Of a DNA stretch of 64,000 bases, positions 2,497-58,744 are shown one piece after another. The stretch covers positions 297,646 through 361,645 of the forward strand of contig JACRQF010000015.1 in NCBI GenBank assembly GCA_016222825.1, in the 5' to 3' direction. How positions within the stretch are numbered: the first letter of the stretch is position 1; each line of letters opens with the position of its first letter. The translations under genes were made by a program, and so were the position numbers. This DNA is from Verrucomicrobiota bacterium. Lineage in GTDB: Bacteria; Verrucomicrobiota; Verrucomicrobiia; CAIQCK01. Under the pieces are notes generated by a model, which worked only from the letters and a program-made list of their open reading frames with translations, ran no database searches and had not been told where the DNA came from.

Positions 2497-3876
2497 ATGA
2501 CGCAACTCACCTCCATGAAAACCATCATCACCTCCCTCATCGCATTGACCGTCACAATTCCGCTCCTGTCCGGCGCGGAGGCCAAAGACCCGTTCCTGCC
2601 GGCGAAGAAGCTCACCGCGCAGATGTATGACTCGAACTTCCGCGAGGGCCACGACACCTACAACGGCATGGGCACTGGCAGCGATGGTTGCATCTACTAC
2701 GTGCTCAGCACCGAGCCGCACGACCTCGGCGGCCGGATGTTCAAGTTCGACCCGAAAACCGGGAAGGTCACCTGCTGTGGCGACCTCACGGAAATCTGCG
2801 GCGAGAAGGACAAGAAGACCGTCGTGCAGGGCAAGAGCCACGTGAACTACGTCGAGGCCAACGGCAAGCTCTACTTCGCTACCCACATCGGCTACTACAG
2901 CATCGTGGACGGCATGGAGACGATGGGCATCCCGCCCGCCGGCTGGAGCAAGTATCCTGGCGGCCACCTGCTCTCCTACGACCTCAAGACCGGCAAGTTC
3001 GAGGACCTCGCCATCGCGCCCGGCGGCGAAGGCGTGCTCACGATGAGCATGGACACCAAACGCGGCCGCATCTTCTGCATGACGTGGCCGAAGGGCGAGT
3101 TCTTCCGCTTCGACCTCGCGACGAAGAACCTGAAGAACTTCGGCAAGCAGTGCGCCGAGGGCGAGAACGCCAAGGGCGAGAAATACCGCACCATCTGCCG
3201 CTCCATCGCGGTGGACCCGGAGGACGGCTCGGCGTATTTCAGCACCTCCGAGGGCACGATTCTCCAATACCGCGCCGGCACCGACGACGTCGTGAAGATC
3301 GAGGACGAGGACTTGAAGAAGGATTACTTCGGCCTCTACGAAGTCTCCAATCCCGGCCACATGGGCTACAACTGGCGGATGACCTTCTACCGGCCCAAAG
3401 ACAAGATGTTCTACGGCGTCCACGGCAATTCCGGCTACCTCTTCCGCTTCGACCCGCGCAAAAAGCGCATCCAAGTGCTCGACCGCATCACCTCCGACCC
3501 CTCCAAGGCCAGCGGCATGTTCGACCAGTTCAGCTACGGCTACCTTGGCTTCGCGCTCGGTCCCGACGGCGACACCATCTATTATCTAACGGGTGGCCCG
3601 ATCTACAAAGACGGCAAGCGCCTCAAGGGCAAGGACCGCATCGCGATGGGCGCGGCCAAGGGTCTCGAAGACCTCCACCTTGTCACCTACCACATCCCGA
3701 CCGGCCGCTGCAAAGACCAGGGTGCGATTTACTACAAGAACGGCGATCGTCCGCTCTACGTCAACTCCATCGCTGTCGGCAAGGATGGGAGCGTTTATTC
3801 GCTCGCCCGCGTGCCCGACAAGAGCCGCGTCCGCGCCGACCTCTTTTGCGTGAAGGGGCCGTTCAACGTAAAGTAG
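2497..3876 (+). CDS. secreted hypothetical protein, probable beta-propeller fold
   Basis: Long ORF 1429..3876; the upstream part is an Arg/Gly/Pro-rich high-GC artefact. ATG at 2497 begins MTQLTSMKTIITSLIALTVTIPLLSGAEA (signal peptide), followed by repeated blade-like segments. Confidence 0.65.
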   Translation: MTQLTSMKTIITSLIALTVTIPLLSGAEAKDPFLPAKKLTAQMYDSNFREGHDTYNGMGTGSDGCIYYVLSTEPHDLGGRMFKFDPKTGKVTCCGDLTEICGEKDKKTVVQGKSHVNYVEANGKLYFATHIGYYSIVDGMETMGIPPAGWSKYPGGHLLSYDLKTGKFEDLAIAPGGEGVLTMSMDTKRGRIFCMTWPKGEFFRFDLATKNLKNFGKQCAEGENAKGEKYRTICRSIAVDPEDGSAYFSTSEGTILQYRAGTDDVVKIEDEDLKKDYFGLYEVSNPGHMGYNWRMTFYRPKDKMFYGVHGNSGYLFRFDPRKKRIQVLDRITSDPSKASGMFDQFSYGYLGFALGPDGDTIYYLTGGPIYKDGKRLKGKDRIAMGAAKGLEDLHLVTYHIPTGRCKDQGAIYYKNGDRPLYVNSIAVGKDGSVYSLARVPDKSRVRADLFCVKGPFNVK

Positions 3877-3966
3877 TCATCACGTTCCGCGTGATGATTA
3901 TTGACCGGCTCTTCGGTGTTGTTTCCGCCGGCTCTCGCGCCTAGTATGCGCGACATCCGAGAAGCG

Positions 3967-4031
3967 TAGCCGCGTCACTCCGTGACGTGGTTGTGGATGG
4001 ACGACTCTCGCGTCGCGGAGTGACGCGGCTA
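3967..4031. other. long hairpin: perfect 16-bp inverted repeat (TAGCCGCGTCACTCCG / CGGAGTGACGCGGCTA) with ~33-nt spacer
   Basis: Read directly in the sequence between the stop of the 2497..3876 gene and the start of the 4052..5434 gene; no U-tract follows. Confidence 0.5.
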
Positions 4032-4051
4032 CTAAGAAAAACGGACGACTT

Positions 4052-35726: not shown

Positions 35727-37091
35727 ATGAAGACTGAATCATCCTCCAAACCTACGCCTCAACCCACGCGCCGCGAATTCCTCCAGTGGAGCGGCAAAGC
35801 CGTCGCCGCGTCTGCTCTTGCAGGCGTCGCGCTGCCCCAAGTCCACGCCGCAGGCACCAACGCCATCAAGCTCGCCCTCATCGGCTGCGGTGGCCGCGGC
35901 AGCGGCGCCGTCGTCAACGCCCTCGAATCCGCCAATGGCCCCGCCAAGCTCGTCGTCATGGCCGACCTCTTCGAGGACCGGCTCAAGCGCTCCCACAAGG
36001 CCCTCCACGACAAGTTCGGCGACAGTGTGGATGTGCCGGAGGACCGCCGCTTCGTCGGCTTCGACGCTTACAAGAAGGCGATTGATTCGCTGCGGCCGGG
36101 CGACGTAGCGATGCTGACCGGCTATGCCGGCTTCCGGCCGGGCCAGTTGGAATACGCCGTCGAGAAGGGCGTGAACGTCTTCATGGAGAAATCGTTTGCC
36201 GCCGATCCGCCGGGATGCCGTCGCGTCATCGCGGCGGGCGAGGCGGCGGAGAAGAAGGGGCTGAAGATCGCCGCGGGTCTCCAGTGCCGGCATTCGCGCA
36301 ACCGGCAGGAACTCATCCGCCGCATCCGCGATGGCGAGATGGGGCAGATCATGCTCATCCGCGCCTACCGTTGCGAGGGAAGCGGCTGGTTGAAGCCGCG
36401 CCCACCGGAGATCAAAGACCTGCACTATCAAATCCGCAACTTCACGAAGTTCCTGTGGGTTTCGGGCGGACTGTGGGCGGAGATGGACATCCACCAGATT
36501 GACGAGATCTGCTGGCTTAAAGGCGAGTATCCGGTGAGTGCGCACGGCATCGGCGGCCGGGTCGCGAACAGCAAGGATTGCAGCCAGAACCTCGACTCGT
36601 TCTCGGTGGAATGGACGTTCGCCGACGGGACGAAGGCCTACGACGTGGTGCGCTACATCCCGAAGTGCCTCTACCAGTTCGACACCTACGTCCACGGCAC
36701 CAAGTGCGCGGCGCAGTTCTCCGGGCCGATCCACGCGGGCATTGTGCATACCTACAAGGACCAGCGTTGCGCGCCGGACAACATCGCGTGGGAGGCGGAG
36801 AAGGAGCCGATCACGCCGTGGCAGGCGGAGTGGGACGCGTTGTTCGACGCGATTCGGAACAACAAGCCGCACAACGAGGCAAAGCGCGCGGCGATGAGCA
36901 ACCTGGCGGACATCATGGGCCGCGCGGCGGTTCACATGGGCCGGGTGATCACGTGGGAGGAAGCGATGAAGTCCGACTTCAAGTTCTGCCCGAACATTGA
37001 CAACCTCACCGACGACAGCGAGCCGCCGATCAAGGCCGATGCCAACGGCTGCTACCCCGTGCCGATCCCGGGACAGTGGACGGAAATCTAG
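35727..37091 (+). CDS. Gfo/Idh/MocA-family oxidoreductase with TAT signal (paralog 1 of second tandem pair)
   Basis: ORF 35664..37091; TAT motif TRREFLQWSG, GCGGRGSG motif. Start at ATG 35727 chosen (alternative ATG 35664). Confidence 0.85.
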   Translation: MKTESSSKPTPQPTRREFLQWSGKAVAASALAGVALPQVHAAGTNAIKLALIGCGGRGSGAVVNALESANGPAKLVVMADLFEDRLKRSHKALHDKFGDSVDVPEDRRFVGFDAYKKAIDSLRPGDVAMLTGYAGFRPGQLEYAVEKGVNVFMEKSFAADPPGCRRVIAAGEAAEKKGLKIAAGLQCRHSRNRQELIRRIRDGEMGQIMLIRAYRCEGSGWLKPRPPEIKDLHYQIRNFTKFLWVSGGLWAEMDIHQIDEICWLKGEYPVSAHGIGGRVANSKDCSQNLDSFSVEWTFADGTKAYDVVRYIPKCLYQFDTYVHGTKCAAQFSGPIHAGIVHTYKDQRCAPDNIAWEAEKEPITPWQAEWDALFDAIRNNKPHNEAKRAAMSNLADIMGRAAVHMGRVITWEEAMKSDFKFCPNIDNLTDDSEPPIKADANGCYPVPIPGQWTEI

Positions 37092-38446
37092 CGCCGTTGA
37101 ATTCTTCATCATCCACGCGCCGTGAGTTTGCCGGGTCGCGCGGAAAAGCGATGGCCGCTTCCGCGTTGGCGGGCGTGGCCGTTCCGCGAGTCCATGCCGC
37201 GGGCGACAACACCATCCGCCTTGCGCTCATCGGCTGCGGCGGGCGCGGCAGCGGTGCGGTGGTGGATGCGTCGCAATCGCCCTACGGCCCGGTGAAACTC
37301 TACGCGATGGCCGACCTGTTCGAGAAACGGCTCGCGTCTTCGCACAAGGTCCTCAGCGAGAAACTCGGCGGGCAGGTGGACGTGCCACCGGACCGGCGGT
37401 TTGTCGGCTTCGATGCTTACAAGAAGGCGATTGACCTCCTGCGCCCCGGCGATGTGGCGATGCTGACCGGTTACGCCGGCTGGCGGCCGATGCAACTGGA
37501 ATACGCCGTTGCCAAGGGCATCAACGTCTTCATGGAGAAATCGTTCGCCACCGATCCGCCCGGCGTGCGGCGCATCATCGCGGCGGGCGAGGTTGCGGAA
37601 AAGAAGGGGCTGAAGATCGCCGCTGGCCTGATGGCGCGCCACGCACCCAACCGGCAGGAACTCATCCGCCGTATCCGCGACGGCCAGCTCGGCGATATCC
37701 AGATCATCCGCGCCTTCCGGATGCAGCCTTGCGGAACGTTGCCGCCGCGAAAGCCGGAGGACAACGAGCTCCGATGGCAGATCAGCCGCTTCACACATTT
37801 CCTCTGGGTTTCCGGCGGACTCTGGGCCGAGATGAACATCCACCAAGTGGACGAGATTTGCTGGATCAAGGACGCCTGGCCGGTCTCCGCGCACGGCGTC
37901 GGCGGACGGATTGCCGGCAGCCGGGACTGCGGGCAGAACCTCGACTCGCTCTCCGTCGAATGGACCTTCGCCGACGGGACGAAGGCGTATCACGTCACGC
38001 GCTGGCTGCCGAAGTGCCACGCCGAGTTCAACACCTACATGCACGGAACCAAATGTGCGGGCGTCTTCCCGTGGCTGAGCGGTCATCGCGACGACCTCAC
38101 GCGAATCTACAGGGACCAACGCTGCGCGCCCGACAACATCGCATGGCAGGCCGAGGAGGGGCTGTTCACTTACTACCAAGCCGAGTGGAACGTCCTGCTC
38201 GACGCCATCCACAACAACAAGCCGCATAACGAAGCGAAGCGCGCGGCGTTCTCGAACCTTGCCGACATCATGGGCCGGGCCGCCGTCCACATGGGTCGCG
38301 TCATCACGTGGGACGAAGCGATGAAGTCCGACTTCCGCTTCTGCCCAAACATCGAGAGTCTCACCGACGCCAGCGAGCCGCCGTTGAAAGCCGGCGCCGA
38401 CGGACGCTACCCCGTGCCGATTCCCGGCCAGTGGACGGAAATCTGA
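37076..38446 (+). CDS. Gfo/Idh/MocA-family oxidoreductase with TAT signal (paralog 2 of second tandem pair)
   Basis: ORF 37076..38446; TAT motif TRREFAGSRG; by eye roughly 80% identical to the 35727..37091 protein. No ATG upstream of the TAT motif, so start is GTG 37076 (overlapping the upstream gene) or TTG 37097. Confidence 0.8.
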   Translation: MDGNLAPLNSSSSTRREFAGSRGKAMAASALAGVAVPRVHAAGDNTIRLALIGCGGRGSGAVVDASQSPYGPVKLYAMADLFEKRLASSHKVLSEKLGGQVDVPPDRRFVGFDAYKKAIDLLRPGDVAMLTGYAGWRPMQLEYAVAKGINVFMEKSFATDPPGVRRIIAAGEVAEKKGLKIAAGLMARHAPNRQELIRRIRDGQLGDIQIIRAFRMQPCGTLPPRKPEDNELRWQISRFTHFLWVSGGLWAEMNIHQVDEICWIKDAWPVSAHGVGGRIAGSRDCGQNLDSLSVEWTFADGTKAYHVTRWLPKCHAEFNTYMHGTKCAGVFPWLSGHRDDLTRIYRDQRCAPDNIAWQAEEGLFTYYQAEWNVLLDAIHNNKPHNEAKRAAFSNLADIMGRAAVHMGRVITWDEAMKSDFRFCPNIESLTDASEPPLKAGADGRYPVPIPGQWTEI

Positions 38447-53472: not shown

Positions 53473-54771
53473 TTACACGATCTCTTCCTTCACCGGATCC
53501 CAGCGCACCTGACGGCGCTTCAGATAGGACTCGACGGACATCAGCGACGTCGCGATCTCCACGAACGCTTCGTCCACGCCGCACTTCGGCGTGCCGCGGC
53601 TGCGGATGCAGTTGAAGAAATCCTCCATGTGGTTCGGCTGGCGCGGCGTCTTGCCGCGAATGTAGCCCTTCGGCAGGTCCTTCTTCTCGTTGTGGCCTTC
53701 GGGCGTGATGGTGAAGTTCGTCGCGTCGTGCGCGATGCCGTCGAAGCGCAGCAGCGCGTCCTTGCCGCAGAACTCCACCGGCTGGCCGACGCCGGTGTTC
53801 ATGCTCGCGGTGAACGTGACCGTGCGGCCGAGCTTGATGAACTGATACGTCGCCGCCCACGTGTCGGGCACCTCGCGGTCGTCCTTGAGCAGCGCGTTGA
53901 GACCGGCGCAGATGCAGGTGTCGGGAATGCCGTGGCCGAGGATGTATTGGACGAAGTCCAGCTCGTGCGAGAGCAGGTCGCCCGCCTGGCCGGTGCCGTA
54001 GCGCCAGTAACAACGCCAGTGCCAGAAGTGCCGCTCGTTGAACGGAATCTTCGGCGACTCGCCTAGCCAGAGCTTCCAGTCCACGTCCTTGACGACCTTC
54101 GCGGGATCGGGACGCTCCCATTGGCCGTAGTAACCATACCAGCGCCAGATCGGATGGGCCGGCTCGGTGTTGCCGTAGCGGCCGGTGCGCACGAGCGTGA
54201 TCGGGCCGAGCGCGCCGGTGGCGATGAGTTCCTTGGCTTGCAACGCGCACGCGCTCTGCCGCGCCTGGTGGCCGAGCTGGAACACGACCTTGCTCTTCTT
54301 GAGCGCGGCGCGCATCAGCTTCGCCTCCTTGAGCGTGCGCGAGAAACCCTTCTCGCAATAGATGTCTTTGCCGGCCTTCACCGCATCGAGAACCATCTGG
54401 CAATGCCAGTGGTCCGGCGTGCCGATGACGACCGCATCCACGTTCTTGTCGGCAAGCAGCTCGTGGTAATCCACGTAAGCCTTCACGTCGGGGTTCTTGC
54501 TGCGCTCGACGCCTTTCTGGCGGTGCGGTCCATACACGTCGCACACCGCCGTCATCTTCACGCCGTCGCAGTTGACCGCCCCGTTGATGAGATCGCCGCC
54601 GCGCGTGCCGAGGCCGATGCAGCCGACGCCGATGGTCGCGTTCGGCGATTTGGCACTGAGGATGGCTGGCGCGAAAGCCGAAGCCGCGGCGAGCGTTGTC
54701 GCGGTCCTGCCGGTGGTGCTGAGAAACTCCCGTCGGGTGAAGTGGGTCTGCTCGTTCATGTTGGTTTCCAT
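53473..54771 (-). CDS. Gfo/Idh/MocA-family oxidoreductase with TAT signal
   Basis: ORF 53473..54831; start at ATG 54771 (METNMNEQTHFTRREFLSTTG) or 54759; GCIGLGTRG NAD-binding motif. Confidence 0.85.
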   Translation of the reverse strand: METNMNEQTHFTRREFLSTTGRTATTLAAASAFAPAILSAKSPNATIGVGCIGLGTRGGDLINGAVNCDGVKMTAVCDVYGPHRQKGVERSKNPDVKAYVDYHELLADKNVDAVVIGTPDHWHCQMVLDAVKAGKDIYCEKGFSRTLKEAKLMRAALKKSKVVFQLGHQARQSACALQAKELIATGALGPITLVRTGRYGNTEPAHPIWRWYGYYGQWERPDPAKVVKDVDWKLWLGESPKIPFNERHFWHWRCYWRYGTGQAGDLLSHELDFVQYILGHGIPDTCICAGLNALLKDDREVPDTWAATYQFIKLGRTVTFTASMNTGVGQPVEFCGKDALLRFDGIAHDATNFTITPEGHNEKKDLPKGYIRGKTPRQPNHMEDFFNCIRSRGTPKCGVDEAFVEIATSLMSVESYLKRRQVRWDPVKEEIV

Positions 54772-54895
54772 GTTTGACTGCCGCCTGTCTGGGCGCGCAG
54801 AAAACACTACTTTCCGGCGAAGTGCAAGCATTCTGAGGTTTTGTTCCCGACCGCGTGGTTAACTTTCCGCGCCGACCGTATTAGCTGGAGGCATC

Positions 54896-55120
54896 ATGAT
54901 GCCACGGTCACGGTGGAACAAGCGCAGGCGCAATGGGAGGGGGTTCTTTGCCGTCTCCAAACACGGCAAGACTGTCGGCTTCTTTATCTCCTTGGACCGT
55001 ATGGAGGCGCTGCTGGAAACTATTGAGATCATGGGAAATCCAAAGGCGATGAAAGCCATACGTGACTATCAAGCGGGCAAGATGAAGTTCCGCGATATTG
55101 ACCGCTTGCATGAAAACTAA
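54896..55120 (+). CDS. Phd/YefM-like antitoxin-domain protein (solitary; no cognate toxin recognised)
   Basis: 74-aa ORF with GGAGG 4 nt upstream of ATG; C-terminal two-thirds (…FFAVSKHGKTVGFFISLDRMEALLETIEIMGNPKAMKAIRD…) resembles Phd/YefM antitoxins; N-terminus atypical (see findings). Confidence 0.55.
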   Translation: MMPRSRWNKRRRNGRGFFAVSKHGKTVGFFISLDRMEALLETIEIMGNPKAMKAIRDYQAGKMKFRDIDRLHEN

Positions 55121-55233
55121 TGGATCGCACAGCTAGCCGTCGCCGCGCTTCGGGCAAGGACAAGTCAAGAGGGCGGCTACCACTCGGAACCGGGGGTCTC
55201 TTTCGTTGGATTCCGCAGCAGCGGAAGGGCTGG

Positions 55234-55803
55234 TCAGGCTTGCGGCGGAGGCGCTGCCTTGGCGCGGGAAGCTTCGCGCGGAACCAAAGCGGCCGGGACC
55301 ACGCGCGCCGCCGATGGCGCTTCGGTCTTGACGTTCGGGACGCAACTGTCGCAGTAGCGAAGAACGTAGTAACGGACGATCTGGTGGAAGGCGCGGTTCA
55401 GTTGCTCGAAGACGTCGAACCATTCCTCTGGCGCCGCTTCGAGGCGCGAGTGGATCCAGCGGCGCACGACGCTCTCGCCGACCAGAAACACCTCGATGCC
55501 CTGGCAGAGCGTCAGTTTCCAGACGCTCATCGGGCCGAGTCGGCAGAGGGATTGGGAGGCGGGCGGCTGGGCGGGGAGTTTACCCTCGATGATGCGGACG
55601 ACATCGCGCAGCAACAGCTTCAACGGCTCCTGCGGCGCTTCGGCGAGGTTGATGCTCGCCAGCACGGCATCTTCGTTCAGCCGGCGCATCCAGCCGGCGC
55701 AAAGCTGTTCTTCATCGCGGGTGAGCAACTCGATCAGTTGCTTCTTGATCGTGCGCGCCGCGCCATCGCTCTTGCGCTTAACGAGATTGTCTTTGGAATC
55801 CAT
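55234..55803 (-). CDS. hypothetical protein
   Basis: ORF 55234..55872; ATG at 55803 (MDSKDNLVKRKSDGAARTIKKQLIELL…); protein-like composition, unlike the overlapping plus-strand ORF. Confidence 0.5.
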   Translation of the reverse strand: MDSKDNLVKRKSDGAARTIKKQLIELLTRDEEQLCAGWMRRLNEDAVLASINLAEAPQEPLKLLLRDVVRIIEGKLPAQPPASQSLCRLGPMSVWKLTLCQGIEVFLVGESVVRRWIHSRLEAAPEEWFDVFEQLNRAFHQIVRYYVLRYCDSCVPNVKTEAPSAARVVPAALVPREASRAKAAPPPQA

Positions 55804-55970
55804 GTGTGCCGTCGAGGCTGGCTGCGGCCCGATTTGCGAACGGCTCCAGACGGCCAGCTTCCTACAGTGCATCCTAGGAGAACGGGAGCGAGCCAGCTAC
55901 ACCATGCTTGGCTTTCTTTTTGCAGCCATTGCACGAGCCACGGTGGCGAGCGACCGCCAAAGAATCCGCG

Positions 55971-57320
55971 CTATTTGCCGGCAGGCGTTATCGGCTTTTT
56001 CGAGACGATGTCGTCGGCAGGAATGTCCACGAAGATGCCGGGCGCGGTCTCGAAATGAACGGTGCCGTCGTTCTCGACGCGGTTGATCAGGCCGCGCAGG
56101 GTGCGACCATCCTTGACTACTATAATGGTGTCGGGAAGGAAGAGGCGCTTGAGTTGGACGTTGCTGATCGTCGTGGTCTGGCCGTCCTGGATGCTGGCCA
56201 CGACCTGGACGTCGGCGCAGCCGGGCCTGACAAACTTCACGATGCGCTGGCCTTGCGGCACGTTGGAGATGATCAGCGGGACCGAGTAGGCTTGGTTGGG
56301 CGGCGCCTGGGTGACGCCACGCGGGTCGTTGTCCACAAACACCTGCACGCCGGCCGGGATCGTCGTCACTTGAAGGATGCCGAAAAGTTTCGCGAACGGT
56401 ATCTTCAGGTCCAAGTCCGCCCCTTTCTTCAGTGTGACCTTTCTCTCGACGGGGTCGAAGCCGTGCTTGGTGATCTTGATGGCGTATTCGCCTTCGTGGA
56501 GCCGGTCGAGGATGACCGGGGCCTTGCCACGCGCTTCGCTGTTAAGAAACACCTCGCCGCCGGTCGGATCGGTGTCCACCTTGATGCGACCGAGTTTCTC
56601 CTTGAGCAGGGCGTCGACGTTAAATTCCTTCATGCTTTTGACTTCGGCTTCCTGCTCGAACGGTTCATAGCCATCGAGTTCGACGCGGACCTGGTGTTTG
56701 CCGGCAAGGACGTTTTGGATGCTTTGCGGCGAATCACCCACGTAGGAACCGTCAAGGTAAACCTTGGCCTTCTCAGGCGTGGAAATGACCTTGATGGCGG
56801 TGAGCAGCGAGCGCAGTTCGAGCGAAATCAGCTTCGGCTGGCGGTCGCCTTCGTTCTGGATGTTCAGCACCGTTTCCTTGGACTCGTAGCCGTCCTTCTT
56901 GATGACGATGCGATGCTGGCCGGCGGGCAGGTCGGTCAACAGCACCGGCGTCTTGCCGCGGAACACATTGTTCACGAGCACTTCGGATTCCGCGGGGAAC
57001 GATTCGGCGAGGACCAGGCCGAACAACGGCCGCAGCGACAGGTCGAACCGCGTGGTTCCTTCCGGCAGCACGTTGACGGTGGCGCGCGTCTCCAGGAAAC
57101 CGTCGCGCGTGGCCACAACCAGATGTTGTCCCGGCGCAACCTTTAGCTTGATGGGCGAGTCGCCCTGGTAAACACCATCCAGTTCGATGCGCGCGCCGGA
57201 TGGCGACGTGCGCAGTTCGAGCAGGCTGCCGGGTTGTTCAACACAGCCGGCGGCCAGCAGTGCTGCCAGTATCAAGGCACTCAGTCCGCAACGTGCGATG
57301 GCAATCGTAGGGTTCATCGG
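55971..57320 (-). CDS. PEGA-domain lipoprotein (several PEGA repeats)
   Basis: ORF 55971..57437; ATG at 57320 gives lipoprotein-type signal MNPTIAIARCGLSALILAALLAAGC; repeated PEGA-like modules (…GKTPVLLTDLPAGQHRIVIKKDGYE…, …GKAPVILDRLHEGEYAIKITKHGFD…). Confidence 0.8.
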   Translation of the reverse strand, partial: PMNPTIAIARCGLSALILAALLAAGCVEQPGSLLELRTSPSGARIELDGVYQGDSPIKLKVAPGQHLVVATRDGFLETRATVNVLPEGTTRFDLSLRPLFGLVLAESFPAESEVLVNNVFRGKTPVLLTDLPAGQHRIVIKKDGYESKETVLNIQNEGDRQPKLISLELRSLLTAIKVISTPEKAKVYLDGSYVGDSPQSIQNVLAGKHQVRVELDGYEPFEQEAEVKSMKEFNVDALLKEKLGRIKVDTDPTGGEVFLNSEARGKAPVILDRLHEGEYAIKITKHGFDPVERKVTLKKGADLDLKIPFAKLFGILQVTTIPAGVQVFVDNDPRGVTQAPPNQAYSVPLIISNVPQGQRIVKFVRPGCADVQVVASIQDGQTTTISNVQLKRLFLPDTIIVVKDGRTLRGLINRVENDGTVHFETAPGIFVDIPADDIVSKKPITPAGK

Positions 57321-58744
57321 CGTGGCAGATGTCGTTGCACACCAATCAGTTTCCGGTCGGCCTCCTTGTAACGCTCGTCCTCGCGGTCGGGAACGCGCGC
57401 CAGGATCTCCGACAGGCATGTCTGCGCCTTGGCCCACTCGCCGAGCTTCATGGCTTGCTCGGCGTTGAAGCGCAAGCTGTTGATCTTTTCCTTGAGCATG
57501 TCCTTCGCCAGCGTCTCGTTCTGGACCGCCGCGGCGAAGTTGGCCGGTTTCGGCTCGATGATCTCCAGGTCAATCTGGACAAGCTGGAATGCCTTGATGG
57601 CGTTGTAGAGGTTGGGATAGTCCACGTCGCGCTGCTCGAAGAGCTGCTTGCCGCGCAGGTAGGCCTCGTCCGCTTCCCTGATCAACTCCTCGCGGGAGCG
57701 GTTGATCGCGGCGATGCCCAGTTCGTTCTGGGCGAAATCCTCCAGCACTTTCTGCGCGTTGACGAATGCGTCGGGGGCGATGGTGTTTTCGATCTCGACC
57801 CGCTTCACGCGCGCGCCGCGGGTCAGTTCGATGACCGCCATTTCCTGCTTGTCAGCAGGGAAGCCGCCGTATTTGGGTTTCTCCAACTTGTCGAAGCCGC
57901 CGTTCTCGATCTGACGGACCAGTTCTATGATGAGGCCCTCGCCCACCTTCTTCTCGCGCTGGACGTGGCGGCGCTGTTTGAGGTCATCCACGTTCAACGT
58001 CACTTTGTCGCCGCTGAGGCGTAGCGCGAACCGGAAGATGTTCTGCGTGCTCGCCTCGACCTTCTCGTAAAACAGGTCTGGCCGCCGCGTCTCGCCGCCC
58101 ATGCTCGACACCACTTGTGGCATGGAGCGCTGGACTTCCTTCCAAACGTAGAGTCCGCCGCCGATGGCCACGATTGTCAGGAGGGCCGTCAGCCCCAACG
58201 ACATCAGGCGGCGGCCGATGGGAGCGGCGGGCTTCTTCTTCGCGGGGCGTTTGGGCTTGCCGCCGAAGGTCAGTTCGGCCGGAGCCTCTTCGCCGGTTTC
58301 CCCGGCTTCTTCAACCTCTTCCTCCTTCCTTCGGGGCTGCTCCTCTTCCGCCGTCTCCTCCTCGGCTTCTTCCACGGCGGGCTTTGTGACCACGGGAAGC
58401 TTCTCGGTCGCCGGGCCGCGCTTGGGCGGCTCGCTCTCGCGGACGGGGCGCGCGGCTTCCTCAATGACCTCGAAGAGGGTGCTGCCGATGGAAATCTCGT
58501 CGCCGGGCTTCAGGACGCTCTCGTCAATGGACTGGCCGTTGACCTCGGTGCCGTTGACCGATTCGAGGTCGCGGATGACCATCTGGCCGTGCTCATCCAT
58601 GCGCACGTCGGCGTGTTCGGAGGAAACGAGCTGGTCGTCGGGAATGACGATGTCGCACTGCGCCGCGCGGCCGATGGTCACGGGGTTTTTGCCAACCGAG
58701 TATTCCCGGCCGCGGCGTCTGCCTTGTAGGATGCGAAGTTTCAT
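57314..58744 (-). CDS. FHA-domain membrane protein
   Basis: 476-aa ORF; N-terminal FHA domain (…YSVGKNPVTIGRAAQCDIVIPDDQLVSSEHADVRMDEHGQMVIRDLESVNGTEVNG…), Glu-rich linker, one TM helix, C-terminal domain. Confidence 0.85.
   Translation of the reverse strand: MKLRILQGRRRGREYSVGKNPVTIGRAAQCDIVIPDDQLVSSEHADVRMDEHGQMVIRDLESVNGTEVNGQSIDESVLKPGDEISIGSTLFEVIEEAARPVRESEPPKRGPATEKLPVVTKPAVEEAEEETAEEEQPRRKEEEVEEAGETGEEAPAELTFGGKPKRPAKKKPAAPIGRRLMSLGLTALLTIVAIGGGLYVWKEVQRSMPQVVSSMGGETRRPDLFYEKVEASTQNIFRFALRLSGDKVTLNVDDLKQRRHVQREKKVGEGLIIELVRQIENGGFDKLEKPKYGGFPADKQEMAVIELTRGARVKRVEIENTIAPDAFVNAQKVLEDFAQNELGIAAINRSREELIREADEAYLRGKQLFEQRDVDYPNLYNAIKAFQLVQIDLEIIEPKPANFAAAVQNETLAKDMLKEKINSLRFNAEQAMKLGEWAKAQTCLSEILARVPDREDERYKEADRKLIGVQRHLPRR

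Follow-up and report, generated by a model that had tools for sequence, protein, structure and literature searches.

A solitary Phd/YefM-like antitoxin gene in a Verrucomicrobia genome bin is probably the remnant of an eroded type II toxin-antitoxin cassette

What does a Phd/YefM-like antitoxin gene represent when it has an atypical amino-terminus and no toxin gene beside it? In a preliminary description of the locus studied here, an orphan regulator, a decayed toxin-antitoxin module and an indel in a homopolymer were all considered. The gene, ORF74, is an open reading frame of 74 codons on the forward strand (54896..55120) of a 64-kb window, which is the whole stretch of DNA analysed and forms part of a contig of 584,697 bp. 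According to the open reading frame listing of the window, it translates to MMPRSRWNKRRRNGRGFFAVSKHGKTVGFFISLDRMEALLETIEIMGNPKAMKAIRDYQAGKMKFRDIDRLHEN, and it is deposited in GenBank, from a Verrucomicrobia genome bin, as MBI5687132.1 with the name 'hypothetical protein'. As had been described, a GGAGG sequence (54887-54891) precedes the first ATG by 4 nt and a second one by 7 nt, and a run of five guanines is present inside the gene at 54939-54943. Over 54892-54948, the adjacent frame reads ...HHDATVTVEQAQAQWEGVL...

A search of a large protein collection with ORF74 yielded four proteins (P0001-P0004), the first being ORF74 itself, from a Logan assembly. P0002 is an intact antitoxin of 83 amino acids, to which residues 17-74 of ORF74 are 95% identical (56/58). 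P0003 is a second intact homologue of 83 amino acids, with 74% identity to ORF74 over the shared part; the amino-terminus of these two proteins is MNATVTLEQAQAQLPRLLRRARRE / MNATVTLEQAQAQLPRLLRRARREGFFAVS... The intact 83-residue antitoxins come from Verrucomicrobia-like metagenomes. P0004, from a Verrucomicrobiae genome bin, is related through the C-terminal 43 residues only. The Pfam family PhdYeFM_antitox (PF02604) matches ORF74 weakly, with an E-value of 0.01, and at profile positions 27-66 only. The score of 16.1 bits is below the curated cut-off of 29.8 bits; intact P0002 scores 28.7 bits, and 29/29 aligned antitoxin relatives match the profile at E<=0.01, the best with an E-value of 1e-14. 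When 29 intact antitoxins were used to build an HMM for the family, ORF74 scored 101 bits over positions 21-82. The identities to P0002 and P0003 and this score place ORF74 among the Phd/YefM proteins by descent, and the resemblance that had been noted for its C-terminal region, weak by Pfam, is unambiguous when compared with the gene's own family. NCBIfam yielded nothing beyond chance-level matches, to YafN and FbpB, which were discarded.

The relatives also reveal what happened to the amino-terminus. The adjacent frame encodes, over 54898-54934, the ancestral amino-terminal residues, DATVTVEQAQAQ in the window and MNATVTLEQAQAQ in the relatives. By tblastn, residues 2-20 of P0002 match window positions 54898..54954 in this second frame, and in an alignment of the window DNA with three relatives that have intact antitoxins (L001, L012 and L013), nucleotides 54901-54934 match the intact genes column for column. 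The part of ORF74 that is out of frame is a patch of about 15 codons, MPRSRWNKRRRNGRG, at 54899..54943 (+), recognised in the DNA alignment, as the second tblastn segment and at positions 3-15 of the family HMM. Its borders are the lost A of ATGAATG (between 54899 and 54900) on one side and the G5 run on the other; in the ancestral frame, the patch reads (N)ATVTVEQAQAQ-WEG. The suspicion that the atypical first codons conceal a better antitoxin amino-terminus in the adjacent frame, and that the two frames meet at the guanine run, was therefore correct. Generic profiles did not detect this: with Pfam and NCBIfam profiles applied to the alternative frame and to fused constructs, no score was gained from the alternative-frame amino-terminus, whereas the family-specific HMM matches it over positions 3-15 with about 6-7 bits. 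It is the comparison with close relatives that proves the point, and not the profile search of both frames that had been proposed as a check. By itself, the generic search would have wrongly dismissed the alternative frame, and close homologues were needed. The annotated frame does not align end to end with the family, nor is the other frame devoid of similarity.

Three small lesions can be distinguished. One A is missing right behind the start codon, between 54899 and 54900, changing ATGAATGCC to ATGATGCC. After GCGCAAT (54934), a net 26 nt are missing compared with the intact loci, which is best read as an in-frame deletion of 27 nt between two direct repeats of 8 bp (GGCGCAAY), together with a G gained in 54939-54943. 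The window has a single copy of the repeat, GGCGCAAT, at 54927..54934 (+), directly preceding GGGAGGG, with the deletion junction at 54934/54935. L012 has GGCGCAAC at gene position 33 and again at 60, a spacing of 27 nt, while L001 contains GGCGCAAT and GGCGCGGC at these two positions. Most of helix 1 was removed with the deletion, at about residues 14-23 of the ancestral protein (LPRLLRRARR). The G5 run (54939..54943, +) exceeds the ancestral GAG GGN TTC by one G; in that sequence, the third base of the glycine codon differs among the relatives. At this run, the patch rejoins the ancestral frame. The lesions (-1, -27 and +1) add up to a net loss of 27 nt, so ORF74 is exactly nine codons shorter than its relatives, and the ancestral start and stop codons share one frame with about 15 codons out of frame between them. 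The proposed indel in the G run is thus real in the sense that an extra G shifts the frame, but a single slip does not suffice, as the 27-nt deletion and a separate, compensating 1-nt deletion are present as well. Programmed frameshifting was considered and rejected: the intact relatives are all single-frame and the lesions are unique to the window sequence.

If both 1-nt indels were sequencing or assembly errors, the true gene would be an in-frame antitoxin of 74 amino acids, MNATVTVEQAQAQWEGFFAVS..., with the 27-nt deletion only. One of the two indels is indeed located in a homopolymer, and the corrected sequence scores slightly higher than ORF74 on the family HMM (106.8 vs 101 bits), with a single gap of nine residues. 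However, the second site is only an AA dinucleotide, two errors that cancel exactly would be a coincidence, and the Logan assembly of SRR12113394, a run that possibly shares the window's reads, is 100% identical to window positions 54584-55939 (1356 nt), both lesion sites included. We consider this explanation very unlikely. The 27-nt deletion and the deletion of the toxin gene (see below) are not homopolymer slips and therefore stand even if the length of the G run were wrong.

In the YefM/Phd fold, the N-terminal strand 1 and helix 1 make up the dimeric DNA-binding core, while the C-terminal part wraps around the toxin. AlphaFold models of P0002 and ORF74 are of low confidence (pLDDT 61 and 51) and were used for the order of secondary structure elements only. 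For P0002, strand 1 (residues 3-6), helix 1 (7-24), strands 2-3 (26-40), helix 2 (42-55) and C-terminal helices (58-81) are predicted, the order expected for Phd/YefM proteins. In the ORF74 model, residues 1-16 have no structure and residues 1-28 are below pLDDT 50; strands 2-3, helix 2 and the next helix are kept. Codons 17-74 (54944..55117, +), in the ancestral frame, would comprise strands 2-3, helix 2 and the C-terminal helices, the latter presumed to be the toxin-binding part. The sequence of this presumed toxin-binding segment, ETIEIMGNPKAMKAIRDYQAGK..., is present and conserved, with the conserved LDE(D/N) end changed to LHEN. Codons 2-16, on the other hand, encode nonsense, and neither strand 1 nor helix 1 is left, their residues being encoded in the other frame and 9-10 residues of helix 1 being deleted. 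ORF74 therefore lacks what a repressor needs, and the part that is kept works only together with a toxin. From this, we infer that ORF74, if translated at all, yields a protein unable to bind an operator as a repressor and left without a partner to neutralise in cis, most likely a non-functional relic. The orphan regulator of the preliminary description, a Phd/YefM-like protein binding DNA without a toxin, agrees with the solitary position of ORF74 and with the conserved leader upstream of it. Nevertheless, the dimeric core such a protein would bind DNA with is deleted or out of frame and PF02604 is matched only from position 27 onwards, which makes a regulator extremely improbable.

In intact loci, a gene for a RelE/ParE-superfamily toxin of about 98 amino acids is located directly downstream of the antitoxin gene, its ATG usually overlapping the antitoxin stop codon. 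What is left of it in the window is a stub, ATGAAAACTAA, at 55110..55120 (+), containing the toxin ATG plus 11 nt overlapping the antitoxin stop, as identified from the alignments and the toxin starts in L001 and L013. Homology to the toxin does not extend past the antitoxin stop codon (55120/55121); the frame of the stub continues for eight codons, up to a TAG at 55134-55136. In L001 and L013, the sequence past the antitoxin stop continues as toxin, MRTKVQVGDRVEVFLKSLAPEPRR... These alignments show the toxin gene of the window genome to be deleted from its fourth codon onward. In its place, an unrelated spacer (55121..55233) extends up to the stop of a converging gene for a 212-residue protein, without a toxin match by HMM or tblastn. 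The adjacent, co-oriented cognate toxin gene of a type II module is absent from the window: a tblastn search of the 64 kb with four toxins gave a best E-value of 0.37, and an HMM of 55 toxins, run with filters off at E<=10 against the six-frame translation, gave nothing. The statement that no RelE/ParE/YoeB-like toxin is encoded on either side of ORF74 can thus be extended to all frames of the 64 kb. A decayed toxin-antitoxin module, the second of the possibilities raised before, is supported, with the toxin gene severed precisely at the antitoxin stop. The spacer shows no similarity to the flanks of the closest intact copies of the cassette, L001 and L012-L014, and the window flanks show none to these loci beyond the cassette, neither as DNA nor as protein. 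As synteny ends with the cassette, there is no orthologous site on which to map the toxin deletion. A repeat search around the locus found nothing marking the boundary of a mobile element.

The identity of the ancestral cassette follows from profile comparisons with solved structures. The antitoxin profile matches Mycobacterium tuberculosis RelB (9g12; 5e-11), Escherichia coli YefM (2a6q; 6e-6), Rv2865 (9e-5) and Staphylococcus aureus YefM, and the toxin profile matches an archaeal RelE (1wmi; 2e-5), E. coli RelE (1e-4), M. tuberculosis RelE and YoeB. These matches identify the cassette as a Phd/YefM-fold antitoxin with a RelE/ParE-superfamily toxin. Its intact members thereby resemble the YefM-fold antitoxins that pair with RelE-family toxins, such as M. 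tuberculosis RelB/RelE (9g12) and RelBE2 (Rv2865-Rv2866; 3g5o) and E. coli YefM-YoeB (2a6q), both by profile and in gene order, with the antitoxin first and the toxin start overlapping its stop. They differ in that their toxin subfamily is divergent, with 7/18 toxins reaching PF05016 (ParE_toxin) at E<=0.01. ORF74 itself differs further from these systems, lacking about the first 26 profile positions and the toxin partner.

Genome and metagenome collections were scanned for the cassette, and 88 further loci were found; from one Verrucomicrobia-like genome to another, the genomic context of the cassette differs. Among the 66 non-redundant related loci in which the antitoxin is followed by 330 nt or more, the toxin is full and overlaps the antitoxin stop in 52, partial in five and absent in nine, so that an intact toxin is missing in 14/66, about one fifth. 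L012, with 215 nt downstream, was left out of this count; in this locus, an intact antitoxin stands beside a remnant of the toxin C-terminus. In two other lineages, with independent remnants, the antitoxin is truncated at its N-terminus and the toxin is damaged as well. In L002, antitoxin homology is present from VDRMEALLE onward only, and a toxin stub of about 14 codons remains; in L057/L058, antitoxin homology starts at ARHGR, without a start codon, and the toxin is cut after residue 67. In the sampled loci, a damaged antitoxin is always accompanied by a damaged toxin. In two further loci, L006 and L010 (6001-6524; from bins labelled Akkermansia and Verrucomicrobiaceae), the antitoxin is intact; the toxin frame matches the HMM from position 13 only in L006, and from position 1 in L010, where no plausible start codon is found at the usual place. 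Loss of the start codon or use of an alternative start could be involved in these two.

The homology of the window to the intact relatives starts upstream of the antitoxin gene, as seen from the DNA alignments and blastn boundaries, with a leader of 41 nt (54855..54895, +) that is a putative promoter/operator region. It contains four window-specific substitutions at positions invariant in L001, L012 and L013: at 54861 (TTGACT to TTAACT), 54869, 54884 (TATTAAC to TATTAGC) and 54888 (CTGAAGG to CTGGAGG). The last of these creates the GGAGG at 54887-54891, where the three intact relatives carry GAAGG, GAAGA or GAAGC; the strong Shine-Dalgarno sequence is therefore a derived feature of the window copy. 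A promoter scan of the locus detected no sigma-70-like site, and the one terminator-like hairpin found, inside ORF74, is not meaningful. An Rfam scan of 54000-56000 returned only a sub-threshold match to an archaeal snoRNA, taken as chance.

Substitutions in the coding sequence were polarised with L001 as sister and L012 and L013 as outgroups. On the window branch, the 58 in-frame codons contain five synonymous changes and one non-synonymous change (P = 0.002 under neutrality), the latter turning D into H at 55109, within the conserved LDE(D/N) end. In the out-of-frame stretch, one base in 34 differs from the consensus of the relatives. These counts agree with lesions that arose recently in a gene under constraint along most of the branch, and could also mean that the C-terminal part of ORF74 is still in use. 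Anti-addiction orphan antitoxins are known, for example the chromosomal ccd of Erwinia chrysanthemi, where a chromosomal antitoxin-like gene, with no need of a toxin of its own, could counteract a related toxin brought in by a mobile element. ORF74 is antitoxin-like as well, but its folded N-terminal domain is destroyed.

In line with such a role, ORF74 might be a functional orphan, with a toxin-neutralising C-terminal part behind a new, arginine-rich amino-terminus, kept against a cognate RelE-like toxin encoded in the genome or on mobile elements, for anti-addiction or cross-protection. Compensating indels restored the frame, the start codon is kept, the Shine-Dalgarno sequence has become stronger, and the five-to-one ratio in the C-terminal part and the open C-terminal half of the same gene in L002 can be added to this; orphan antitoxins have also been proposed as anti-addiction modules (PMC7192599). 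However, this form of the gene is seen in one genome only, so selection after the lesions is not measurable. The folded core is missing strand 1 and helix 1, and the low-confidence model is below pLDDT 50 for residues 1-28; the sole non-synonymous change strikes a conserved motif; promoter-like positions of the leader are mutated; and the toxin is not found within 64 kb. In L002, a hand count from the alignment gives similar numbers of non-synonymous and synonymous changes, which points to relaxed constraint there. We regard a functional orphan as unlikely, and it is likewise unlikely that the compensated double frameshift gave rise to a still-translated orphan peptide with an arginine-rich amino-terminus, kept as immunity against a cognate RelE-like toxin of incoming mobile elements or of the genome. 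The observations that could mean continued use of the C-terminal part (the open reading frame, the change from GAAGG to GGAGG and the ratio of substitutions) are each also expected if the lesions are recent.

The explanation we prefer, with a probability of roughly 85%, is that ORF74 is the remnant of a two-gene type II toxin-antitoxin cassette from which the toxin gene was deleted and in which the antitoxin gene acquired three small lesions, leaving a non-functional relic. The ancestral cassette would have encoded a Phd/YefM-fold antitoxin of about 83 amino acids and, overlapping with it, a RelE/ParE-superfamily toxin of about 98 amino acids. Loss of the toxin would have been the first step, because losing the antitoxin first would kill the cell or arrest growth. 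Later, a repeat-mediated deletion of 27 nt, the slip adding one G and the loss of one A would have affected the antitoxin gene. The +1 and -1 changes cancel, keeping the reading frame open from the ancestral ATG to the ancestral stop. The antitoxin gene would now be decaying neutrally, with lesions that are probably recent; that it is still open is due to chance or to recency. ORF74 thus carries the disabling lesions of a pseudogene (-1 nt, -27 nt plus 1 G), and its partner gene is deleted.

The locus is a case of ordinary, two-step toxin-antitoxin erosion. In eroded chromosomal toxin-antitoxin systems, the toxin gene is the first to be lost or truncated, and decay of the antitoxin gene follows (Belot et al. 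2026, PMC13617665), and orphan antitoxins are abundant (Horesh et al. 2020, PMC7192599). The ORF74 remnant is like these systems in still being called as an open reading frame. It is unlike them in that its lesions compensate each other, so that the start and stop codons of the ancestral gene still delimit one open frame; for annotation pipelines, it is therefore a 'hypothetical protein' and not a pseudogene. Compensating indels can thus hide a pseudogene from gene callers, and the deposited 'hypothetical protein' can be annotated as a remnant of a Phd/YefM-RelE/ParE cassette. With a deletion between 8-bp repeats, a homopolymer slip and a precise toxin loss, the locus provides a fully resolved example for the two-step erosion model. 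It also belongs to a toxin-antitoxin subfamily that occurs widely in metagenomes and in genome bins (those with a label being Verrucomicrobia) and has lost the toxin in one fifth of the sampled loci. ORF74 would deserve greater weight only if its truncated product proved to be an active anti-toxin.

The neighbours of ORF74 are ordinary chromosomal genes, as judged from Pfam. Upstream, a Tat-signal Gfo/Idh/MocA oxidoreductase is encoded on the reverse strand (53473..54831, -; Pfam). Downstream, the converging gene (55234..55872, -) encodes the 212-residue protein, for which no Pfam family was found at E<=0.001 and which has 189 residues in the Logan contig. It is followed by genes for a PEGA-domain protein (55971-57437, -) and an FHA-domain protein (57314-58744, -), both given as longest open reading frames. 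These two overlap by about 120 nt, and the true start of the PEGA gene is probably further downstream. L002 also contains a Gfo/Idh/MocA gene, which matches window positions 37116-38154 and not the neighbour of ORF74. Tandem Gfo/Idh/MocA paralogues are present in the window at about 35767-36805 and 37116-38154. The second paralogue is 80% identical, at the DNA level, to a gene on JAOACV010000558.1, from the Verrucomicrobiae bin GCA_026417675.1; this contig has its own, independently eroded antitoxin remnant beside an RraA-like gene.

A hairpin-forming motif of 24 nt (GTAGYC...CRYTCCGYG...) was found three times in one intergenic region of the window, at 3873-3896 (+), 3966-3989 (+) and 4009-4032 (-), against a chance expectation of 0.01 copies. 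It is also present twice in L012 (583-607 and 617-643), about 290-350 nt upstream of the intact antitoxin. These copies look like REP-like palindromic elements common to related genomes.
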